This document shows positions 679 to 12,037 of a stretch of 12,037 nt of DNA, in pieces. The stretch lies in UHGV virus genome UHGV-0115279; one strand, given 5' to 3'. The DNA is from a virus. The notes below the pieces were generated by a model. The model made no database searches, was not told the origin of the DNA, and was given only the letters and a program-made list of their open reading frames with translations. The translations under genes and the position numbers were made by a program. Each line of letters begins with the position of its first letter. Within the stretch, counting starts at the first letter, position 1.

Positions 679-1260
679 TTACTGGAACGCCCGAACAATA
701 TCGGAGCTGTTATATATCGAAGAACCGGTCAACTGGAGGTTGACGGTGTTTTTCAGGAAATATCCATTACTGTCCCTTGGCGCATCGAGATCAAAACTTA
801 AGTCCTGGATGGCGACATCGGTGATGTTGATCCGGCGACCAATGTTTAGCGTCACGCGCTCCGGGATTCGACCACCAACATTGGCCGCTTTTAGTTCCGG
901 GCTAATCATGGCTGTCAACGCGGCGATAGCGCCTGAAACTTCAATGAATGGATTGTTCAAAGCAATGAAAGTTACAGGCAGCGTGAACGTCGGCGGTGTT
1001 CCCCCTTCCCAAACCATTAAGCTGTTCCAACGGGTCACCGACGTTGTTTCAGTACCAACCTGCGCAAAACCACTGAAAGCACCAGCAACAGACCCCATGG
1101 ACATACCGGTAAACGGCGCTTCCCAATTCTGGGCCATGTTCATTGCTGCCCCCTGGCTGATATATCCGGTAACCTGATACTGAGAGTTCGTTAAAGTAAC
1201 TTTCAGATATGGCGATACACCGTCAGCCTGGCTGTAAACCCCATAAGCTATAGGAGCCAT
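679..1260 (-). CDS. hypothetical phage morphogenetic/structural protein
   Basis: 193-aa ORF with ATG start at 1260..1258 and protein-like composition, sitting in the late operon between the acidic protein gene and the tube-like gene. No recognisable motif. Confidence 0.5.
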   Translation of the reverse strand: MAPIAYGVYSQADGVSPYLKVTLTNSQYQVTGYISQGAAMNMAQNWEAPFTGMSMGSVAGAFSGFAQVGTETTSVTRWNSLMVWEGGTPPTFTLPVTFIALNNPFIEVSGAIAALTAMISPELKAANVGGRIPERVTLNIGRRINITDVAIQDLSFDLDAPRDSNGYFLKNTVNLQLTGSSIYNSSDIVRAFQ

Positions 1261-2120: not shown

Positions 2121-3710
2121 TTACTTAATAAGCAGCGGTACGCCCTGGATACGACGGGCTACGCCAGTCGGGCAGCAGGCCCAGACTACTTCCCATTTAT
2201 CGAATTCCGCCTGCGTAACTTTCAGCACATACGGTTCTGTACCGTCAGCATCAGGATCACGAGGAGCCACCAGAGCGCCGGAGGCGACAAAGCGATCCAA
2301 AAGTTTGGTCATCCCTTTAGTCAGGCCAGACTCAGTAATGCCGTCCGGGTTATGCTTCATCTGTCGGGCTAACTGGACAAAGAAACGGCTGATTGCGTTC
2401 ATCAGGGATGGGACGTGCTGGAAATGCAGATAGTTGTCCTGCGTGCAGCAAGTTAAAGCATCATCGATGATCATCTGGCCCGAAGTACCTACAGATACTT
2501 TATTGAGTCGGCCCTTGACCATAGCTTCTTCGTCCGGGGTGTCTTCAGGATACAGCGGCTGAAGTGATGCACGAGCAATGACGGCACGTTCTTCACCAGC
2601 CGGTGAGTAATGCCAACCGCCGACATCGGAGTTTTTCTTGACGCCACGAGCTATCGCCGCATACGCCGCGCCAGACAGACCGAAGATCACGCGGGATTGG
2701 GTCCATTTGTCTTTGCAGGAGAACGGGAAATGATAGACAGCACAGCTTACATAATCGGTACCAAGTAAACCGGTATCTTCAACAGCAGAGATCGCTTCCG
2801 TGTACGTCAATGTCGGTTTGACATCAAAGAAGCCATCAATCAGGCGATCAGAACAGATATTACCTAACGCAGTGATCGCCGCATTGTCATAGCAACCCAG
2901 GCCGAGAACAGCGGTGTACATGTACGGCGCATTGTTCAGCACTTTCACCGCACGCAGGTAAGCAGCAGTGGAAATGTTCGACTGATCGCCGTTGGTACCG
3001 CCAGTGAACGCCAGCGATTTTTTATTTGTTACTTTCGCCGTCGAAATCAGCTCTTCATTAACAACCGCGCGCAGATATTTAGAACGGGCTTCCAGAGCCG
3101 TAGGCAGATAACACAAGCGGCCCATGTCATCTTTCGCTTCTTCCGCCAAAGACACAGTGTGTGTCTCCAGGGTCGTTACCACACCGAGCGAAGTCGTCTG
3201 GGTCAGTTTTAAGAGGAAGCGTTCATTACCCGCGCTGTCCGCTGTTGCCGTTTCGATGGTTAACTCACGGGTAGGAGAAATACACGGATCACCATCATCA
3301 ACGTAGATAGCAAAGGCTTCGCCGCTATCAAGTTCAATTTCAGAACCGTATGGCAACGCACTGTAAGCCGGTTCGCCTGATTCATCGAACATAATAATCG
3401 GGAACTTCGCATCATCCGGAACAGCACGGACAACATAACCAGACGTTTGCTGAATAGCTTCGTACACATGGCGAATTGGTTCGAACTGTGAGCCGGAGGA
3501 CGGCTTCAGCGGTTCGCCGAGAACATCTTCGTAATTGGACTCAGTAACCGCAAGAACAGTAAACGGCTTGCCACGCGCAAATACGCCAATACCAGCCCAC
3601 AAGCTGCTATTTAATACAACACCGGTAGATAACGTCGCATCGGCATTGATCGGGCTAACAGCGACACCGGATGCATTACCTAATGACTGTTGAATTGAAT
3701 ATTGAGACAT
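2121..3710 (-). CDS. putative contractile tail sheath protein
   Basis: 529-aa ORF (~58 kDa) with ATG at 3710..3708 and an AGGGAAA SD. It lies immediately downstream of the major head gene, matching the P1 late operon order (head gene 23, sheath gene 22) as I recall it. Assignment is by size and synteny, not a verified motif. Confidence 0.55.
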   Translation of the reverse strand: MSQYSIQQSLGNASGVAVSPINADATLSTGVVLNSSLWAGIGVFARGKPFTVLAVTESNYEDVLGEPLKPSSGSQFEPIRHVYEAIQQTSGYVVRAVPDDAKFPIIMFDESGEPAYSALPYGSEIELDSGEAFAIYVDDGDPCISPTRELTIETATADSAGNERFLLKLTQTTSLGVVTTLETHTVSLAEEAKDDMGRLCYLPTALEARSKYLRAVVNEELISTAKVTNKKSLAFTGGTNGDQSNISTAAYLRAVKVLNNAPYMYTAVLGLGCYDNAAITALGNICSDRLIDGFFDVKPTLTYTEAISAVEDTGLLGTDYVSCAVYHFPFSCKDKWTQSRVIFGLSGAAYAAIARGVKKNSDVGGWHYSPAGEERAVIARASLQPLYPEDTPDEEAMVKGRLNKVSVGTSGQMIIDDALTCCTQDNYLHFQHVPSLMNAISRFFVQLARQMKHNPDGITESGLTKGMTKLLDRFVASGALVAPRDPDADGTEPYVLKVTQAEFDKWEVVWACCPTGVARRIQGVPLLIK

Positions 3711-3725
3711 AACTTTCCCTGTTAT

Positions 3726-3743
3726 GCGCCCCGCACGGGGCGC
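3726..3743 (-). promoter_or_regulatory. strong GC stem-loop in the head-sheath intergenic region
   Basis: Perfect inverted repeat gcgccccg/cggggcgc (7-bp GC stem with a 4-nt loop) between the head gene stop (3770) and the sheath gene start (3710). No U-tract follows, so it is not a classical intrinsic terminator; it may affect mRNA stability or processing. Confidence 0.4.
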
Positions 3744-3769
3744 TATGTTAAACGGAGAACTTCCCCTGA

Positions 3770-4951
3770 TTACTCAGAGTCACCGGCATCAATCGTGTCG
3801 CCGCTTATAAAGTTAAGCCCGCCTTTTTTGGCCATTGTCAGCGTTACACGAGTGAAGTAATCAGCGCCGTTGCGTGGGTGCATATCGTTGATAGCCGAAC
3901 CCCACAGCGTGGTACGGTTGACCAGCGCCGGAGTGGTCGGATGCTGGAACGGGATGGCCGGGACAGCATCACCAGTCACGAAGCCTGCTTTACCCGGATT
4001 TTCATCACGGACGTAGCACAGCACATCCATCGAGCTGAACTGAATGTTCTCTGTCGTTAAGTTCTTACAAATACCAGCAGGTACTTCGTACACTTTCACG
4101 TTACCGAACAGGGTACCGATGTAGTGAACATACGGAGTCTGGATATAGTCTTCGGCTGACTGGAAGAAATCCTTCGGCAACTGTTTGAAGAAAGATGCTG
4201 CATCAGCACCAGCAAACATCCCCATCGCACCAGAAGATTTAACGCGCTCAATAATGTCGCGATATACAGTCTGGAATTTGCCACGAATGATGGTTGCCCA
4301 TACATCAAAGGACTGGTTAACCGGCAGAGCGATGTCAAAGGTGTCGGTCGCAAGAGTACGCCAGATCATGATGCGAAGACGCAGCATATCCTGTTCATGA
4401 GACAGGTATTCCTTCAGGGTGCGGAACTGTAGGGAACCCAGGTCCAGACCAAATTCACGCTGTGCTTCATACGCCGCCTGTACCGTGTGCTCAGCCGCGA
4501 TAACGAACTGACTTGGGAACAGGGTGTATTTCTTCATTTCGTGGTTGATCAGCGGGATCAGCTCAGGAGCGGCTTCAATATTGATTTCCGTCTCAATTGC
4601 GATCTCAGTGCCTTTATCCGGCGCTTTGGAGAACGACAGGGCAATCTGACCAATGTTGTAGTTCAGAGAGCAGGTAACAGTGATTTGCTCACCAGCAGCA
4701 TTAGTAAACGAGTGAAGTAGGCTGCCGGAACCGTTATCAACAACAGACTTAATACGGTTAACGTAGATGTTAGTGCGACCTTTTCGGATTGGTACATTCT
4801 GGCCTTCGAAGTCTTCCATCTTGAAGGTTGCGGTTTTGCTGGTGCCATCGGAGCTTGCCAGCAGCATAAGAACCAAAAGATGAACCTGCCACGTTAAAGA
4901 CTTCATAGATGTCGGACTGGTCACGCGTAACCGGAATGAAGGTACACGCAT
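3770..4951 (-). CDS. major head (capsid) protein, C-terminal ~365 codons; the upstream part appears to continue in another frame
   Basis: 393-aa ORF with no convincing RBS at its annotated ATG (4951) and a non-protein-like N-terminal ~30 aa, while the sequence from ..SSDGTSKTATFKMEDFEGQ onward looks like genuine protein. It overlaps the 4770..5432 ORF by 182 nt in a different frame. Confidence 0.6.
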   Translation of the reverse strand: MRVPSFRLRVTSPTSMKSLTWQVHLLVLMLLASSDGTSKTATFKMEDFEGQNVPIRKGRTNIYVNRIKSVVDNGSGSLLHSFTNAAGEQITVTCSLNYNIGQIALSFSKAPDKGTEIAIETEINIEAAPELIPLINHEMKKYTLFPSQFVIAAEHTVQAAYEAQREFGLDLGSLQFRTLKEYLSHEQDMLRLRIMIWRTLATDTFDIALPVNQSFDVWATIIRGKFQTVYRDIIERVKSSGAMGMFAGADAASFFKQLPKDFFQSAEDYIQTPYVHYIGTLFGNVKVYEVPAGICKNLTTENIQFSSMDVLCYVRDENPGKAGFVTGDAVPAIPFQHPTTPALVNRTTLWGSAINDMHPRNGADYFTRVTLTMAKKGGLNFISGDTIDAGDSE

Positions 4952-5432
4952 CAGCGGTAGCTGCCCCCAACTGAACAGGCAGGATCATCGCGAGGAATAA
5001 AGGCAGACGCATAACACCGTCAGAAACGCTCATCATCTCTGCTGCGACGGATTCCAGCATCGCTTTATTAGTGGCATCCATGCTATTGCGGGTGGACTCA
5101 ATCAGGCAGTTTTCCAGCGTCTGGTGGCAGGAGGCCAGAATTTCCGGACGCGGCATAGATTTATGTGCTGCGGCGTAGTCAGCCAGTGCACTTGCCCACG
5201 CTGTAGCGATTTGAGCGGTGGCATTATCAGAGATACCCGCAAAAACCGGGTCTTTACGTGCAGCTTCAAGGATAGATGCGGCACGCGCGGCATCATCTTT
5301 AATGAATTGGTTATCAGTACCGAACTGCGCAGTGCTTGCCCAGCCAAGCACAGCTTTAGAGCGTTTTGCGATATCTGCAATACGATTCTGGTATTCGCGT
5401 AAGTTACTCAATTTACTCTTCCTTAAACACAA
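4770..5432 (-). CDS. major head (capsid) protein, N-terminal portion (Ala-rich helical delta/scaffold-like domain), frame-shifted relative to 3770..4951
   Basis: The 220-aa ORF in the track begins at a TTG. The likely true start is the in-frame TTG at 5411..5409, preceded by AAGGAAG with 6-nt spacing. The N-terminal part is Ala-rich and protein-like; the last ~28 aa (KLRWHQQNRNLQDGRLRRPECTNPKRSH) look like out-of-frame read-through. Confidence 0.55.
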   Translation of the reverse strand: MCLRKSKLSNLREYQNRIADIAKRSKAVLGWASTAQFGTDNQFIKDDAARAASILEAARKDPVFAGISDNATAQIATAWASALADYAAAHKSMPRPEILASCHQTLENCLIESTRNSMDATNKAMLESVAAEMMSVSDGVMRLPLFLAMILPVQLGAATADACTFIPVTRDQSDIYEVFNVAGSSFGSYAAGKLRWHQQNRNLQDGRLRRPECTNPKRSH

Positions 5433-5454
5433 GGCACTTGTGTGAATCCCTTTT

Positions 5455-5495
5455 CGGAAGAGATTTTATTGAAAGTCACTTGTTGACTTTCTCGT
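5455..5495 (-). promoter_or_regulatory. putative phage late promoter for the head-sheath operon (palindromic activator site plus -10)
   Basis: A 21-bp palindrome with 8-bp arms, GAAAGTCA-ACAAG-TGACTTTC (5471..5491), is followed 2 nt downstream on the minus strand by TAAAAT (5468..5463). This puts the palindrome centre near -25, with no -35 hexamer, about 45 nt upstream of the head gene start. The architecture matches what I recall of P1 late promoters (Lpa-dependent). Confidence 0.4.
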
Positions 5496-5547
5496 GACAA
5501 GCAATTTTTTTATTTTTTTCGGGAGTAGGGGAGGAAGGTAAAATCCA

Positions 5548-5636: not shown

Positions 5637-6638
5637 TTAAGGCTTCGGCTTTTTATCGAGGCTCTTTCTAAGGATATGCCCAATCATCCTGTCGAGTTCT
5701 TCCTGTAGCTCTTTTGAAAGTCGATTAAACTCATAAGAAAATGCACGGCCTTTCACGCGCTTCCTTGCAAAGCGATCCTTGTCCTCAAATTTCCATAATT
5801 CAGTAACTACGGACTTATCTTTAGAACCTTTATCCGTGAGTAGTGAGGCTTCCTTTGTTATCAAGCGCAGGATTTTATTTTTAACTTCATCTTCGGCCAT
5901 TTCTTCAATGGATAAGATGTCGTTTATTTCCGGGGATATGTTTTGAATAAGCTGATCAAACTCTAAATTCTTGTTCCCCATTTCGTCGCCAACAGCACAA
6001 AGCGTTTTGTAGTCCGAAAAGGTTAATTCCGACTGCACAGGGAAAAGGGCGACTAATTCTTCCGGAGCACTCGCTGCCTGGAGAGCACGCGTGACCTTCG
6101 CCTGAGACAGCCCTTCTTTGGCTGCAATATCCTTCTGACTCATCCCATCATTTTTCATTCGCATCAAACGCAGACCTATTTCTCGAATGCTGTGCTGCAA
6201 TGCTGTCTGAACGTCTTTCGCTAAATTTTGCGCTTCCTGAACGCTGATCTCCTGGTCCGTGACTAAAACCCGCAACCCTACGTTCTCTAAGATGGCAGAA
6301 GCTCGACGCCGGGAACCATCCAAAATTTCAATTTTCCCTGTAGCCCGTCTAACACCTATTGCAGGGTAAAATTGCTGATGCTTAATAGTGCTTCGGATAC
6401 TTTTTAATGATTTTGGCGTAAGAGATGTCTGGTCACGCCCGTTGTTATGCTGATCAACAAAGGTATCGCTTTCTACCTGGTTCGGAGGTATTACCTCTTC
6501 AATAAATGTGGCCTGGCGACCAGTTGATAACTTGAATACCTGCTCGACTCGATCGCCAGAGGCTGAAGAACTATCAAATCCGCTTAATATTGAAGGATTA
6601 AGGGTTCGCCCAATTGTTGGTCTGTTTTTCTTTGACAT
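5637..6638 (-). CDS. parB: ParB partition protein (centromere-binding, P1 type)
   Basis: 333-aa ORF with ATG at 6638..6636 and a GAGGAG SD that overlaps the parA stop codon. N-terminus MSKKNRPTIGRTLNPSILSGFD.. and the arginine patch ..ILDGSRRRASAIL.. are typical of ParB, and it sits between parA and parS. Length and sequence match P1 ParB as far as I can recall. Confidence 0.9.
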   Translation of the reverse strand: MSKKNRPTIGRTLNPSILSGFDSSSASGDRVEQVFKLSTGRQATFIEEVIPPNQVESDTFVDQHNNGRDQTSLTPKSLKSIRSTIKHQQFYPAIGVRRATGKIEILDGSRRRASAILENVGLRVLVTDQEISVQEAQNLAKDVQTALQHSIREIGLRLMRMKNDGMSQKDIAAKEGLSQAKVTRALQAASAPEELVALFPVQSELTFSDYKTLCAVGDEMGNKNLEFDQLIQNISPEINDILSIEEMAEDEVKNKILRLITKEASLLTDKGSKDKSVVTELWKFEDKDRFARKRVKGRAFSYEFNRLSKELQEELDRMIGHILRKSLDKKPKP

Positions 6639-6654: not shown

Positions 6655-7851
6655 TCAGTTAGATCTGATAAATTCAATACGGTCAAAAACTGCTTTAGCA
6701 AAATCTTCCGCAGCAATTCGCGCGTTCTTCAATGCATCAGCACTACCAACATACGTTGCCGGGTTAGCTGAAATAACAGTGTCAAAAGACTCGCCGCAGC
6801 GTTCAAAACCGTCAAGGCGAGGGAGGACAACATCAAGCATATCCCCACCGAACACTTCTTTAGCCAGGCTATGGCAATACTTATGGTCTGCCTTGTTACT
6901 CAACTTGGACATAAAACCAATGTTAGTTGCAAGCTGACACTCGCAGCCTTCATCCGAAATGAGTTTCACCAACTCAGGAAGGCGGGCAACGTATTTAAGC
7001 GATGAGTGGAAATCAACCGTTGCAGGCGGCAGAGGTGTAAACAGTATATTGGCCGAGGCCAAAGCATTTTTCAGGAAGGCGTCAAGGTGAGGACCACTAT
7101 CAACGAGGATAAAGTCATAATCGCTCTTCAGCTTATCAATCACATTTTCTTTCAGGACTGCATGGATGTTCTGACCCGGTAGATGCTCATTGCACAGCTC
7201 TCTCCAATCGGATGCAATAAAGGCATCGTCAATCGACGCAGGCATAACGTCAACCCCAGGTACAACAGAAGGAACAATAAACTCCTCTAACAGCTCTTCA
7301 CGGCTTACATTCTGCAACATAGCCTGTGCAGATGTTGCGTTTACGATACCAATAGAGTGTTTATGGCTTAAAAACATCGTTGCTGAAGATTGCGGATCAA
7401 GGTCAATAACCAGAATCCTTAAATCTTCCATCAGAAGATGAGGATGAGCACGCATTGCATGCGCCAGAGAAACCGTCGATACAGTTTTTGACACACCGCC
7501 TTTAAGATTGGAGATGAAAATCACATACGCTTCGCTGTAGCGATCCCGGTATTTTGGCACTCCGCGATGTTCATATATGTCAATGATGTTCTGAATTGAC
7601 ATCGCATATTTCATTGAAGAGCCAGCAGGGCGTTTATCGAAAACATAACCCTTTTCTTCCATTTCACTTACGGCATAGTCAACGTTCGCACGAGTCAGTA
7701 GAGGCAATTTTGCCAGTGCCGCTTTCGCATAGACCTGGTAAAACTCGTTCGCGTGTAGCTCATCCTTTTGCAACTGTACTTGTTCAGTCAGAACATTGAG
7801 CATTCTATTTGCTCTTTGAGCAACCTTGTGAAGCTGGCTGGAATCACTCAT
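6655..7851 (-). CDS. parA: ParA partition ATPase (type Ia, with N-terminal autoregulatory DNA-binding extension)
   Basis: 398-aa ORF with ATG at 7851..7849 and an AAGGA SD. It has the deviant Walker A motif NLKGGVSKTVSTV and a ~100-aa N-terminal extension, and lies immediately upstream of parB. Length and sequence match P1 ParA as I recall it. Confidence 0.9.
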   Translation of the reverse strand: MSDSSQLHKVAQRANRMLNVLTEQVQLQKDELHANEFYQVYAKAALAKLPLLTRANVDYAVSEMEEKGYVFDKRPAGSSMKYAMSIQNIIDIYEHRGVPKYRDRYSEAYVIFISNLKGGVSKTVSTVSLAHAMRAHPHLLMEDLRILVIDLDPQSSATMFLSHKHSIGIVNATSAQAMLQNVSREELLEEFIVPSVVPGVDVMPASIDDAFIASDWRELCNEHLPGQNIHAVLKENVIDKLKSDYDFILVDSGPHLDAFLKNALASANILFTPLPPATVDFHSSLKYVARLPELVKLISDEGCECQLATNIGFMSKLSNKADHKYCHSLAKEVFGGDMLDVVLPRLDGFERCGESFDTVISANPATYVGSADALKNARIAAEDFAKAVFDRIEFIRSN

Positions 7852-7990
7852 CGAAAGCCATCCTTTATGCTGTATTTTTGAATTTAATTAAAAATGCTGC
7901 ATAAAATAATAATGTATGCGTAGATGCTTGTACATAGCATTCTCTGCATGTTTGGTTCATTTTGCACGATTGAGAGTTACAAGGAGGGCA
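7852..7990 (-). promoter_or_regulatory. par operon promoter/operator region
   Basis: AT-rich 140-bp leader between the upstream terminator and the parA ATG, containing imperfect palindromes (e.g. ATGCTTGTACATAGCAT at 7924..7940; tgcata..tatgcg at 7879..7899). These are plausible sites for ParA autorepression; exact -35/-10 hexamers not assigned. Confidence 0.5.
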
Positions 7991-8014
7991 CAAAAAAGCC
8001 CCGTTCAGGGGCAT
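7991..8014 (-). terminator. rho-independent terminator of the 269-aa gene, insulating the par promoter
   Basis: Minus-strand RNA has GCCCC-UGAAC-GGGGC followed by UUUUUUGUG, beginning 6 nt after the TAA stop of the 8020..8829 CDS. Confidence 0.7.
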
Positions 8015-8019
8015 CAGTG

Positions 8020-8829
8020 TTATTTGCTAAGAGCAGCGAATAATCGTTCGAAATCGATAGTATCTATAGCACGCGTAAGCGCCGGAAGTTCAGCCTCAAA
8101 GTACCCGTGTCGATCGTAAAAGAAGGGACCGAAGAGCGAGGCATGTTGGATTCTACTTCGCCCCAGCCCGGACACACAGTTAAGCCCATTACCGGCTAAA
8201 AGGCTAAAAAACTTCTCTGGATTATCGTGGTAAAGCTGGGAATCAATGGTGGCGGTTAACTCTTCCATAGGGAAGCACACCCGCCCTGTATCCCAGGGAT
8301 ATTTAGTCCGAAGCATAAACATTGCTTTCAGCAATTCACATTGAGCGCGGATCGCGTCCGGTTCATAGCCAGATATGGAGACATAAGCCACGTCCCTCAT
8401 TCCTGCGTCATCTTTGAAAGTCACGATAGAAGTAACATCCAGCTCTTTTTCGAAAGAGCAAGCAGCATCTACTGGACGCTGAAGTAAATCATTCGACTTA
8501 ATGCGCTCGAGAATCCCTCCCCACATATCATTTAGATATTCGATATGAGCCAAAACCTTATCAAGACACTCTCGTGTAAACCATTCAGTATGCCCGCCAC
8601 CGACGCTTTTCTCCCACGGCGCATTCCAGGGGAAAAAGGTTGCGTGTAAAGCCCGCTCAAGATTAACCATTGCCAAACGCGTACCACGATAGACCCGTGA
8701 AAGCGCAAAATCGGGACTCACTTGTAGCCCTTTAAACCGTGCCAATGGACCACATGAAATGCCGATTTTAAAAGTATCTCCGTTCTCTGGCACCAGAACG
8801 TAGAGGTAGTGTTGTTTCTCTTCTTGCAT
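8020..8829 (-). CDS. GIY-YIG / T5orf172-like domain protein with uncharacterised C-terminal domain (candidate accessory, defence or anti-defence gene)
   Basis: 269-aa ORF with ATG at 8829..8827, weak SD, TAA stop and its own intrinsic terminator. The N-terminal ~90 aa (HYLYVLVPENGDTFKIGIS...R...LERALHATFF...GGGHTEWF) follows the Y-x-Y-[VI]-L ... KIG-x-[ST] ... R ... E..LH ... TEWF pattern of the GIY-YIG-related T5orf172 (MUG113-like) family. Residues ~100-269 have no motif I recognise. Confidence 0.75.
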   Translation of the reverse strand: MQEEKQHYLYVLVPENGDTFKIGISCGPLARFKGLQVSPDFALSRVYRGTRLAMVNLERALHATFFPWNAPWEKSVGGGHTEWFTRECLDKVLAHIEYLNDMWGGILERIKSNDLLQRPVDAACSFEKELDVTSIVTFKDDAGMRDVAYVSISGYEPDAIRAQCELLKAMFMLRTKYPWDTGRVCFPMEELTATIDSQLYHDNPEKFFSLLAGNGLNCVSGLGRSRIQHASLFGPFFYDRHGYFEAELPALTRAIDTIDFERLFAALSK

Positions 8830-8863
8830 ATCAATACCACTGCTTGATGAGAACCGCGCAAAT

Positions 8864-9120
8864 GTTGACTATGCGCGAAGGTTAATGTGAATAGTTGACT
8901 ATGCGCGATGTGACTACAGTCAAAAGTTGACTGTAGTCGATTTAACTCCACCAAAGATCGACTATGTAAGATATTGTCGGGAGAAACGTTGACTATACGC
9001 GATGAAATGCCCCTAAAAGCCATCTCAATAGCGACTTGCAGAATATTGACGCCAGCAAAAATCCACCAGCGTCAACGAATGTCGCCTATAGTCAACTTCT
9101 CGCTATCGCATATAGTCAAT
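8864..9120. repeat. incA: incA-like iteron array downstream of repA (copy-number control locus)
   Basis: Multiple copies of a ~14-bp core GTTGACTATGCGCG: direct at 8864..8877, 8894..8907 and 8988..9001; inverted at 9083..9096 and 9107..9120; degenerate copies at 8958..8966 and about 9046..9076. A head-to-head pair forms a perfect 12-bp inverted repeat (8912..8923 / 8927..8938). The last copy abuts the repA stop codon. Confidence 0.8.
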
Positions 9121-9121
9121 A

Positions 9122-10006
9122 TTATGGATTGCGCTTATGGATCTGGAAGCCGATTTTCCTGCCGTTTTTTATCTCTGAAAATTTAAGATATTCAATAGCT
9201 TCCAAATCTTTCATGGCTTTTCTGATAACGCTATTTTGCACGCTAACGGATGATTTGAGATTAAGCCTCGCTCTAAGGCGCTCAATGCTGACAGGTGCCG
9301 GGTTGGCGGGTAGAGCCTCAAAGAATGTATACAGTACCTTGGCCGTCTCTTTGCGCCCTAGTTTATCCAGCATCTTCAGCTTCAGGATTCGCTTATAGTC
9401 AACATAGTAAAGTTCAGATAGCTGTTTCTGCGGCTGGATCTCGATAACATCAAGCTCGGTATTCAGGCTGCTATATGCCAACAAGTTGACGTTAATGTTA
9501 TTGAGATGACCTTTTGCCGCCGGGAAGCGGAATTTGACAACTGTCTGCTGAATGCGTGTCAGAGAGTCATCAATACTTTTACGGAACGCCTTTGAAAGGC
9601 GCTTACGTGGATAGCCGCATCGATCGGCAAACTCGGAGAATGGCAGGGTGATTATGCCGTCATCATCAGGTGCGTAGTCAAACAACGCGGAGGTTATGCC
9701 CACCCACACCTTAAAATCAGTATCCATATCCAGGCGTGGACCATGAATTTCAATTCCCTCATAGCCTTCCTGCTCAACAATTTTGAGGCTTGATAGTTCT
9801 TCAGTTGCGTTCGTTGTGTTTGTTGTAACTGACGATCCGCGACGTAGCGCCACATTGGTAGATTTTAAGGTTGGCACAAACACACCTAAGCGCAACAAAG
9901 CGATGGGTTGTATAGTGCTGTTGTTATTGGGCTTCAGGCTGTGGATTTCTCCTGTATTTCCTGCAACTTCTTCAACGCTAAGGAAGCCTTTACTTTCTTC
10001 CGGCAT
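9122..10006 (-). CDS. repA: RepA iteron-binding replication initiator (RepA/RepE family)
   Basis: ORF 9122..10042 in the track starts at a TTG; the most plausible start is the ATG at 10006..10004 (MPEESKGF..), with GGAG 8-12 nt upstream, giving 295 aa. Blocks IQPIALLRLGVFVP, IHGPRLDMDTDFKVWVGI, FSEFADRCGYPRKRL and LYTFFEALPANPAPVSIERLRARL resemble the P1 RepA / F RepE initiator family, and the gene is flanked by iteron arrays on both sides. Confidence 0.85.
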   Translation of the reverse strand: MPEESKGFLSVEEVAGNTGEIHSLKPNNNSTIQPIALLRLGVFVPTLKSTNVALRRGSSVTTNTTNATEELSSLKIVEQEGYEGIEIHGPRLDMDTDFKVWVGITSALFDYAPDDDGIITLPFSEFADRCGYPRKRLSKAFRKSIDDSLTRIQQTVVKFRFPAAKGHLNNINVNLLAYSSLNTELDVIEIQPQKQLSELYYVDYKRILKLKMLDKLGRKETAKVLYTFFEALPANPAPVSIERLRARLNLKSSVSVQNSVIRKAMKDLEAIEYLKFSEIKNGRKIGFQIHKRNP

Positions 10007-10050
10007 CACGGTTTCTCCATGTGTGGCGCGGCCTGACGTCAATTTGGATG

Positions 10051-10300
10051 GCTGTTATCAACAGCTGTGAATATTCAGACTCTAAAATCGCTTACAGTCA
10101 ATGTTTCTGTCGCGTATAGTCAACAATAAATCGCGTGCAGTCAACAATAAATCGTGCACAGTCAACATAAAATCGCGTATAGTCAATGTTGATCCCATTT
10201 CAGGCCAGTAATGACGCGGCTTACAGCGATCCGGGATCTTCTTTGGATCTTCCTAGGTTCTCTTTAGGATCTGTTTATTGGATCTATGCTGTGGATAAGT
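10051..10300. other. oriR: oriR-like plasmid origin: DnaA boxes, clustered GATC sites and five iterons
   Basis: Five iterons at 21-bp spacing (about 10089, 10111, 10132, 10153, 10174; unit CGCGTATAGTCAACA + AT-rich spacer). Six GATC sites within 95 bp (10191, 10228, 10235, 10246, 10268, 10281; four as GGATCT). A perfect DnaA box TGTGGATAA sits at 10290..10298 and an 8/9 DnaA box TTATCAACA at 10055..10063, inside the palindrome GCTGTT-ATC-AACAGC (10051..10065). Located directly upstream of repA. Confidence 0.8.
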
Positions 10301-10341: not shown

Positions 10342-10734
10342 TTATTCTACGCTTTCGATAAGAAGACCATGTTCATAACATTTAAGCTCATCGCCTTCGT
10401 ACAGGAATTGGTATCCAATACCACCATTTTCATGGACATTAGGGAATAACTCATAACTCACTGAAGAGCAAATCACACCAATGCAGCGATCAACGCCTTC
10501 TCGTTCTTCAGTGCTGAAAAAATCCTCTTCGGTAAGGACATGAGTACATTGCTCATCAGCATAGGTCGGAAATACATGCTCGATGCAATCCGGGTGTTTT
10601 AAACCAAGCTGATCGGCAAGCTCGAAAGCATGACGGTATTGTTCAGATCCTGGCTTGCCAACAGTGATGTGCTCAATTTTGTAGATTGAAGTTGCTTTGT
10701 TGATAGTTTGCTTTACTGTTACTTTATCAGACAT
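10342..10734 (-). CDS. hypothetical Cys/His-containing small protein
   Basis: 130-aa ORF with ATG at 10734..10732 and an AAGGGA SD. Contains spaced Cys/His residues (HPDC, EQCTH, CIGVIC, KCYEH) that could bind metal. Position corresponds to the first gene after oriR in the P1 map (upfA) as I recall it. Confidence 0.6.
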   Translation of the reverse strand: MSDKVTVKQTINKATSIYKIEHITVGKPGSEQYRHAFELADQLGLKHPDCIEHVFPTYADEQCTHVLTEEDFFSTEEREGVDRCIGVICSSVSYELFPNVHENGGIGYQFLYEGDELKCYEHGLLIESVE

Positions 10735-10745
10735 AAAAATCCCTT

Positions 10746-11078
10746 TTAGTTACCTCTGATAGCGCGGTTGTAATCATTAACGTTGCGATTCTTCCTGTTA
10801 ATCCCCATCAGCATCGTTTCTGTATCGAGGATATACGCTGGCAGATCATCAAAATATTCACTGCTAAACTCTGGCATCCTGCACATAAATGCACTTTTGG
10901 GGGCAGGGTGGTTAACCTTTGTCGGCGTCGGCGTTAAATTCGCTGATCGACTGCCGGAGCAACCGCTGAGTGTCAGCAGGAATGCGCTGGCGAACATTAC
11001 CCGCCGCAACCAGTTGTTTCTGAACTTCAGCTTTTCGTTCCATTTGCCTGTCAGCATATTTGGCTTGTTCTGATTCAT
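10746..11078 (-). CDS. lipoprotein precursor; o-spanin-like (or exclusion lipoprotein)
   Basis: 110-aa ORF with ATG at 11078..11076 and an AGGAAG SD 8 nt upstream. It has a lipobox L-S-G-C preceded by the hydrophobic stretch VMFASAFLLT and K/R residues, and a Pro/Thr-rich mature region (TPTPTKVNHPAPK) with one Cys. Its start lies inside the 3' part of the upstream membrane-protein gene in another frame (167-nt overlap). The signal peptide is unusually long from this ATG, so the true start may be an internal Met. Confidence 0.6.
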   Translation of the reverse strand: MNQNKPNMLTGKWNEKLKFRNNWLRRVMFASAFLLTLSGCSGSRSANLTPTPTKVNHPAPKSAFMCRMPEFSSEYFDDLPAYILDTETMLMGINRKNRNVNDYNRAIRGN

Positions 11079-11334
11079 TTTTCACTTCCTGGCTGTGAAA
11101 ATGTTGCTCTGCTTTGTTCATCGTCTCAATGGTCTGGTTAAGATCCATTATTGACTTATCACGTTCCTTAACAGCCTGATCAAGACTGCCAATTTTCTCC
11201 ATGGCTTGCTTTAGCTGATGACGTTCCCATGCAAACCCAGCACCAACAAGTGCGCAAATCAGAACAAGAACACCAGTAGCAGCAAGTTTCTCCTTCAAAG
11301 ACAAAGCTGTTTTTAACGTAGAAAAGAATGACAT
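10912..11334 (-). CDS. membrane-anchored coiled-coil protein; i-spanin-like
   Basis: ORF 10912..11361 in the track starts at a TTG; the likely start is the ATG at 11334..11332, preceded by AGGAGG at 6-nt spacing, giving 140 aa. It has one N-terminal transmembrane segment (AATGVLVLICALVGAGFAW) followed by a charged, helical, coiled-coil-like region rich in Q/E/K/R. Confidence 0.6.
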   Translation of the reverse strand: MSFFSTLKTALSLKEKLAATGVLVLICALVGAGFAWERHQLKQAMEKIGSLDQAVKERDKSIMDLNQTIETMNKAEQHFHSQEVKNESEQAKYADRQMERKAEVQKQLVAAGNVRQRIPADTQRLLRQSISEFNADADKG

Positions 11335-11373
11335 GTCTTCCTCCTGAAGAAAAATTATCAATGAAGTCCTTTG

Positions 11374-11910
11374 TTACTGTGCCGCTTTGTTTAATTCATC
11401 AAGAACAGAATCAGGAACCAAAGCGGCAACTGCGCTGGCTGTGCTGACCTTATTTGCTGATGCTTCCGCAAGCGCGGTACCGATAGCATGGTTATAAGCA
11501 GTTATGGCTACGTTGGCGCTTTCATTCGCTCGTTCATACTGCTGTTGTAACGCAGTTGTGGGCGTTGTTGTCTGGTTGAAAACAACCCCAAACTGTTCAG
11601 TTGCTACTTTCAGAGATTCAATTTGCTCTTCTGTTAGTGCTGGTGGGGGAGTGGCAGTGCCGCCGCCTGAACCAGAGCCTGACGAGCTTCCTGAGCCAGT
11701 GTTAAGGGTCTGGTTAATCTCCCCCATAGCAGCGACTAAACTTGATGTATTAAGCGCGTTAACAGCGTCCTCAAGCGATTTAGTAATATTCACATCACCA
11801 ATGGCAATAGAGATCGGCAGTTCTGAAACTTCTCGCTCATTAGCACGGCAGTAAACATCCCAACCAATATCGAGTTGAAGCAGCATTGACAGATCTGCAT
11901 AACCAGCCAA
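11374..11910 (-). CDS. hypothetical two-domain protein with Gly/Ser-rich linker
   Basis: 178-aa ORF in the track starts at a TTG (11910); the first in-frame ATG is at 11886..11884 and neither has a strong SD, so the start is uncertain. It has a central flexible linker (TGSGSSSGSGSGGGTATPPP) between an N-terminal and an Ala-rich C-terminal region. Confidence 0.5.
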   Translation of the reverse strand: MAGYADLSMLLQLDIGWDVYCRANEREVSELPISIAIGDVNITKSLEDAVNALNTSSLVAAMGEINQTLNTGSGSSSGSGSGGGTATPPPALTEEQIESLKVATEQFGVVFNQTTTPTTALQQQYERANESANVAITAYNHAIGTALAEASANKVSTASAVAALVPDSVLDELNKAAQ

Positions 11911-12037
11911 CAGGTCCGCGTGCTTAGTTGCCAGTTCTCCAATGTTCGTTAAGTCGGTTGTGGTTGTTCTTATCGTTGAAACGGTGATGCTGCCAACTTA
12001 CTGATTTAGTGTATGATGGTGTTTTTGAGGTTCTCCA

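Follow-up and report, generated by a model that had tools for sequence, protein, structure and literature searches.

Gene 23 of phage P1, the gene of the major capsid protein, was found in broken form on the minus strand of the window, by which we mean the whole 12,037-nucleotide stretch analysed here (UHGV virus genome UHGV-0115279). Very probably, a 65-bp deletion bounded by a short direct repeat turned the gene into a pseudogene that is inherited in a set of decayed P1-derived plasmids, and its loss is a case of passive decay. A preliminary description had reported a major head gene split across two overlapping reading frames and had placed two explanations side by side, an indel error in the assembly and a genuine inactivating mutation.

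The split gene and its identity as P1 gene 23

The open-reading-frame listing of the window contained exactly the two minus-strand ORFs that the preliminary description had named, lying in different frames with a 182-nt overlap. The features of the locus are given below, with coordinates in the window.

3770..5411, minus strand: pseudogene of P1 gene 23 (major capsid protein), 1642 nt compared with 1707 nt in P1
4770..5432, minus strand: ORF, 220 aa from its first TTG
3770..4951, minus strand: ORF, 393 aa, with its mechanical start at the ATG at 4951
4770..5411, minus strand: frame A, translated as 213 aa, of which the first 185 are gp23 residues 1-185 and the last 28 (KLRWHQQNRNLQDGRLRRPECTNPKRSH) are read out of frame up to a TAA stop
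3770..4858, minus strand: frame B, gp23 residues 207-568 and the stop, +1 relative to frame A
4770..4951, minus strand: overlap of the two ORFs, 182 nt, a by-product of the frameshift
4858..4865, minus strand: deletion junction, the surviving repeat copy GCTGCTGG, with a breakpoint that is ambiguous within TGG (4858-4860)
5463..5481, minus strand: predicted late promoter LP23, intact, coordinates carried over from the P1 annotation

When the window was compared with phage records by megablast, positions 3700-5500 matched P1, P7, RCS47, SJ46 and others at 99-99.8% identity, and the phage annotation beneath the match read '23: major head protein Gp23' and then '22: tail sheath'. The nucleotide identity to P1 gene 23 (NC_005856, P1_gp058) was 99.6%, in two pieces and with a 65-nt gap set aside. 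A MAFFT alignment revealed only 6 substitutions relative to P1; against plasmid NZ_CP061751, whose allele is intact, there were 0. Similarly, P1 gp23 used as a tblastn query against the plasmid of isolate CB6886, to which the window is identical (record positions 84846-96882, 0 mismatches over 10,920 compared bases), returned two pieces, residues 1-187 and 204-568, at 98-99% identity. In P1, gene 23 is a single 1707-nt ORF downstream of parS and the predicted late promoter LP23, and the same order, parB-parS-23-22-21 with LP23 upstream, is present in the window, where the neighbours of the split gene are parA (6655-7851), parB (5637-6638) and a 529-aa ORF (2121-3710). The view that the split gene is the P1 major head gene is thus borne out by nucleotide identity and synteny alike. 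The P1 protein (568 aa; structures PDB 9ukm and 9vl4) is a major capsid protein of the HK97 fold that has an additional I-domain, as seen by cryo-EM, and its residues 1-124, for which a scaffold role has been proposed, are cleaved and missing from the mature capsid (PMC12810830). A Pfam scan assigned no family to intact gp23 or to either ORF product, and the identity of the split gene rests on the matches to P1 and to the PDB.

The beginning of the gene has been preserved. The TTG at window 5411 corresponds to the annotated start of gene 23 in P1, is preceded by AAGGAAGAG and gives a product of 213 aa. The promoter region (window 5412-5500) has zero differences from P1, and the sigma-70 promoter P1 23 overlaps the predicted LP23. 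A single uninterrupted 568-codon ORF is absent from the window, which has the 213-aa product and a +1-frame remainder instead. Gene callers start the downstream ORF at an ATG at 4819 (349 aa). The ATG at 4951, with which the 393-aa ORF begins, is out-of-frame read-through, and the 393-aa protein had no match on record when looked up.

The deletion and its junction

Aligning the window with P1 gene 23 and NZ_CP061751 (MAFFT) placed the lesion in a single 65-column gap at window 4857-4861. Consistently, the region measures 1801 bp in the window where P1 and the listed full-length P1-like relatives span 1866-1867 bp, always as two BLAST pieces. The two span lengths among the relatives result from one extra C that P1 has, relative to the window and NZ_CP061751, in the 23-22 intergenic hairpin GCGCCCCGTGCGGGGCGC at window ~3741. 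P1 gene 23 contains an imperfect 8-bp direct repeat, GCTGCTGG at nt 547-554 and GCTGGTGG at nt 612-619, with the copies 65 nt apart. The window gene was reproduced by deleting nt 552-616 of the P1 gene, or any register up to 555-619. The repeat spacing and the length of the deletion thus coincide, and the junction keeps one of the two copies. The repeat copies match at 7/8 positions overall, and the perfect homology at the breakpoint is 3 bp only. The deleted segment has no notable hairpin, its DNA folding being no better than that of shuffles (z = -0.5).

The lost part of the protein comprises gp23 residues 186-206 (DVLDMQSVGVYSQLRRRYVLV), that is, 21 codons plus 2 nt. Since 65 = 3 x 22 - 1, the downstream frame is +1, or equivalently -2, relative to the upstream one, as can also be read from the codon starts on the minus strand (4877 for frame A, 4876 for frame B). 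These results alter several details of the preliminary description: the offset given there as -1/+2 was inverted; the frame change, which had been estimated at 4860-4885, was found at the edge of that range; the protein-like sequence, described as continuous across the frame switch, lacks residues 186-206 relative to P1 and the aligned intact relatives; and the lesion is a repeat-bounded 65-bp deletion rather than an indel of 1-2 nt.

The geometry of the repeat suggests how the allele may have arisen. A deletion between the GCTGCTGG and GCTGGTGG copies would have removed one repeat period, most likely through slipped-strand mispairing in replication or through another form of short-homology illegitimate recombination. 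With residues 186-206 lost and the frame shifted by +1, translation from the normal TTG would end after 213 aa, and the remaining 362 capsid-protein codons would lie in another frame, devoid of a proper start. Because the pseudogene has gained no further substitution (none relative to NZ_CP061751), the deletion is recent relative to the divergence of the gene.

A separate observation concerns the second repeat copy, GCTGGTGG, which is the E. coli Chi octamer. It lies on the coding strand of gene 23 (positions 2201-2208 of the P1 locus as extracted for comparison), is the sole Chi in the 4.9-kb P1 stretch examined and is removed by the deletion, which leaves the Chi-like GCTGCTGG at window 4858-4865.

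Distribution of the deletion allele

Two RefSeq records, NZ_JBVDMN010000004.1 and NZ_OZ392450.1, carry the gene 23 span with the PGAP label 'frameshifted'. Both represent the 97,572-bp plasmid of isolate CB6886 and are not independent, being from the same isolate and identical over the compared 12.1-kb stretches. CB6886 is an E. coli ST69 O77g:H18 human isolate from Germany (1997), with a nanopore-only assembly (PMC13248637). A 121-nt query across the junction was searched against 5,426 complete E. coli genomes and matched 608 records, 576 of them at >=80% coverage. Among the matches listed, the two CB6886 records ranked top and were the sole uninterrupted single-piece matches at 100%; the other 38 listed matches were in two pieces spanning 186 bp, i.e. 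with the extra 65 bp. The junction was found in none of the PLSDB plasmids among the matches listed.

Wider searches of NCBI, Logan and ENA data detected the exact 213-aa frameshift product on 37 contigs and the 349-aa downstream gene call on 36. An identical 45-mer junction was present in all seven loci that were fetched (GCA_965650485.1, GCA_016860245.1, GCA_002536635.1, SRR33783050, SRR22135803, SRR27876898 and ERZ27294133), whose identity to the window was 99.6-100%. The otherwise identical intact 568-aa allele occurs on 480 contigs and belongs to a 90%-identity cluster of 3,029 members. The contigs of SRR33783050 and GCA_016860245.1 differ from the window only by 43 differences, clustered at 10399-11971 in upfA-mlp-ppfA-upfB, in what looks like a within-lineage recombination patch.

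Because the exact product occurs on 37 contigs and the junction in seven fetched loci, the deletion is best read as a real, inherited allele. The supposition that the 65 bp exist in the DNA and were dropped by a nanopore-only assembly could draw on the facts that CB6886 was assembled from ONT reads only (Autocycler and Medaka) and that the two junction-bearing RefSeq records stem from that one isolate. However, the junction and the exact product also occur where other groups did the assembly and where Logan re-assembled different SRA runs, the seven loci were confirmed base by base, and a 65-bp loss is untypical of basecalling error; we give such an artefact almost no credence. Of the two explanations in the preliminary description, the assembly error therefore fails against separate NCBI, Logan and ENA assemblies that share one junction, and the genuine inactivating mutation holds. 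It is just as improbable that the locus still yields a functional capsid protein, whether by programmed +1 ribosomal frameshifting or as a true two-gene architecture. The 182-nt overlap and the intact upstream promoter, Shine-Dalgarno sequence and start would accord with either device, but the overlap is confined to the deletion lineage: in P1, in the intact relatives that were aligned and on the 480 contigs with the intact allele, the gene is one 568-codon ORF rather than two separate genes with the same boundaries, an arrangement in homologs that the preliminary description had considered. As had also been noted there, no X XXY YYZ slippery heptamer occurs in the overlap, a result that now covers its whole length in every frame, and programmed frameshifting, already judged unlikely, is made more so by the intact single-ORF alleles on hundreds of other contigs. 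Frame A stops in the context CAC TAA C, unlike a +1 site of the prfB type. A shift of perfect efficiency would still yield a protein minus 21 residues, and the portal and protease required to use such a capsid protein are absent from the plasmid.

Decay of the plasmid and the order of events

The extent of P1 sequence in the CB6886 plasmid was determined by megablast with the whole P1 genome, of which 23.2 of 92.8 kb of non-IS sequence (~25%) is kept. When 25 P1 proteins were compared with the plasmid by tblastn, bplB, pmgG, 21, 22, 23 (in two pieces), lpa and pacA were found, and no match was obtained for prt (portal), pro, lyz, S, 16, bplA, sit, tub, repL, 5, 6, 24, 7, 25, 26, pmgS, darA or ban. 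The plasmid thus lacks the portal, prohead protease, tail tube, tail fibre, most baseplate and lysis genes and the lytic replicon repL; its annotation shows a split ref, a truncated pacB and no more than fragments of darB. The plasmid maintenance functions, rep with iterons, parAB/parS, phd-doc, c1 and cre, are kept. The annotation is dominated by IS1, IS3, IS66, IS421 and Tn3-family elements, and also aboard are a polysaccharide biosynthesis cluster, tet(A), an autotransporter and toxin-antitoxin pairs. Judged from this gene content, the element would be unable to make particles even with a working gene 23. The proposal in the preliminary description that, with this gene inactivated, the element could not form capsids and would persist only as a plasmid is incomplete as to the cause, since other virion genes are missing as well.

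Several further features of the plasmid were noted. Its replicon is unlike that of P1: in place of P1 61313-62814, with the incA iterons, repA and a portion of oriR, there are ~2.26 kb (window 7951-10211) with genes for a 269-aa GIY-YIG/T5orf172 protein (8020-8829) and for a different Rep, of 294 aa (within ORF 9122-10042), the latter flanked by its own TCGCGTATAGTCAA-type iterons at 21-bp spacing (10088-10207) and by inverted copies (8859-9004). This replaced-replicon arrangement is seen in many P1-like plasmids. At one end, the last base of an IS421 transposase gene lies 2 bp ahead of the window, adjoining bplB (158-667), with the consequence that P1 sequence from pmgF onward is lost; the opposite boundary has a truncated upfB (11374-11982, 'missing N-terminus') next to IS1. 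Short-read assemblies of the lineage break at the same IS boundaries, giving contigs of ~12.3 kb. An intact 193-aa ORF at window 679-1260 (minus strand) is 96.9% identical to residues 1-193 of P1 PmgG; it is not so annotated in the RefSeq records, which list a 240- or 231-nt ORF and an opposite-strand 213-nt ORF, and this looks like an annotation inconsistency. Outside the window, the CB6886 plasmid carries an IS1-flanked capsule/polysaccharide cluster of ~18 kb (rfbBDAC and glycosyltransferases), the closest plasmid matches of which are in Leclercia and Enterobacter.

A sister plasmid, pPSJ-07_1 (NZ_AP027620.1), was found by searching with the hokD-IS421-bplB junction, which it shares over 1,800 bp at 99.94% identity. 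A search via the polysaccharide cluster had given partial matches only, in Enterobacter, Leclercia and E. coli plasmids that are unrelated. The alignment to pPSJ-07_1 covers about half of the CB6886 plasmid, and the breakpoints of the P1 remnant at P1 53412, 9754-14437, 87970 and 93232 are common to both, as is a 1165-aa autotransporter. The sister plasmid is without the same morphogenesis, lysis and lytic-replication genes, save pmgS, which it retains, and its gene 23 is intact, with 568 codons. By parsimony, and from this single sister plasmid, the bulk loss of phage genes is most simply read as having preceded the 65-bp deletion. Since a sister with the same remnant structure keeps gene 23 intact, the deletion most likely arose in an element already unable to form particles.

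The reverse order, in which the deletion came first and locked an intact P1-like prophage into plasmid life, with the large losses following, would fit the fact that every deletion-bearing contig seen is already an IS-bounded remnant from which the order is not directly readable. The intact gene 23 of pPSJ-07_1, next to the same IS421 junction and P1 breakpoints, argues against it, as the shared losses most simply predate the deletion. Moreover, no otherwise intact P1-like element with the deletion was seen among the matches listed from PLSDB and the complete E. coli genomes, and the only complete-genome carrier among them is the decayed CB6886 plasmid. We regard this order as improbable. Still less probable is that the 213-aa N-terminal fragment has been retained as useful, an expressed product (the scaffold-like delta domain and part of the N-arm) being kept as a dominant-negative decoy that would poison capsid assembly of superinfecting, incoming P1-like phages; if so, a decayed capsid gene would have become a superinfection-exclusion factor. 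The promoter, the start and the scaffold-like domain (residues 1-124) are intact and the allele persists in at least 37 sampled contigs, but its persistence is explained by hitch-hiking on a plasmid with partition and addiction systems, zero substitutions since the deletion mean that there is no dN/dS signal, and LP23 requires Lpa, which the P1 annotation places under C1 repression.

Passive decay accounts for the locus more simply than a regulatory device would. The plasmids would already have lost about three quarters of the phage while keeping their maintenance functions when the deletion occurred, and the capsid gene, because most phage genes were gone, was probably no longer under selection.

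What happened to gene 23 is ordinary gene decay. RefSeq already flags the pseudogene, correctly, and both the gene and its product have been characterised in detail. The finding has little importance beyond annotation hygiene. It is of use in showing that the split reflects neither recoding nor an artefact of assembly. The exact 65-bp junction would serve as a clean marker for a lineage of IS-eroded P1-derived E. coli plasmids (37 contigs, including that of ST69 isolate CB6886). Together with the sister plasmid, it provides a small, well-ordered example of a phage-plasmid decaying to a pure plasmid, in which bulk IS-mediated loss would have been followed by erosion of the leftover structural genes.

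Compared with P1 gene 23, the window copy is alike in its TTG start, LP23, the order parB-parS-23-22-21 and nucleotide identity (~99.6%), and differs in lacking 65 bp (gene nt 552-616); its frame is broken after residue 185, so the full-length capsid protein cannot be made. Relative to the intact allele of NZ_CP061751 (WP_000067711.1), which is one 568-codon ORF, there are zero substitutions outside the deletion. The allele of the sister plasmid pPSJ-07_1 (WP_000067710.1) is likewise one 568-codon ORF, whereas the window gene is split. The lesion resembles known deletions between short direct repeats in having lost exactly one repeat spacing and kept a single copy; in contrast to these, the repeat here is imperfect (7/8, with 3 bp perfect at the breakpoint) and one of its copies is Chi. 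For the plasmid as a whole, a close parallel is offered by defective P1-related plasmids such as p15B of E. coli 15T-; homologies to p15B are cited in the notes of the P1 record. Like p15B, the CB6886 plasmid is a P1-derived replicon kept as a plasmid without being a viable phage, but it is far more eroded, with ~25% of P1 left, and is loaded with IS elements, the polysaccharide cluster, tet(A) and the autotransporter.
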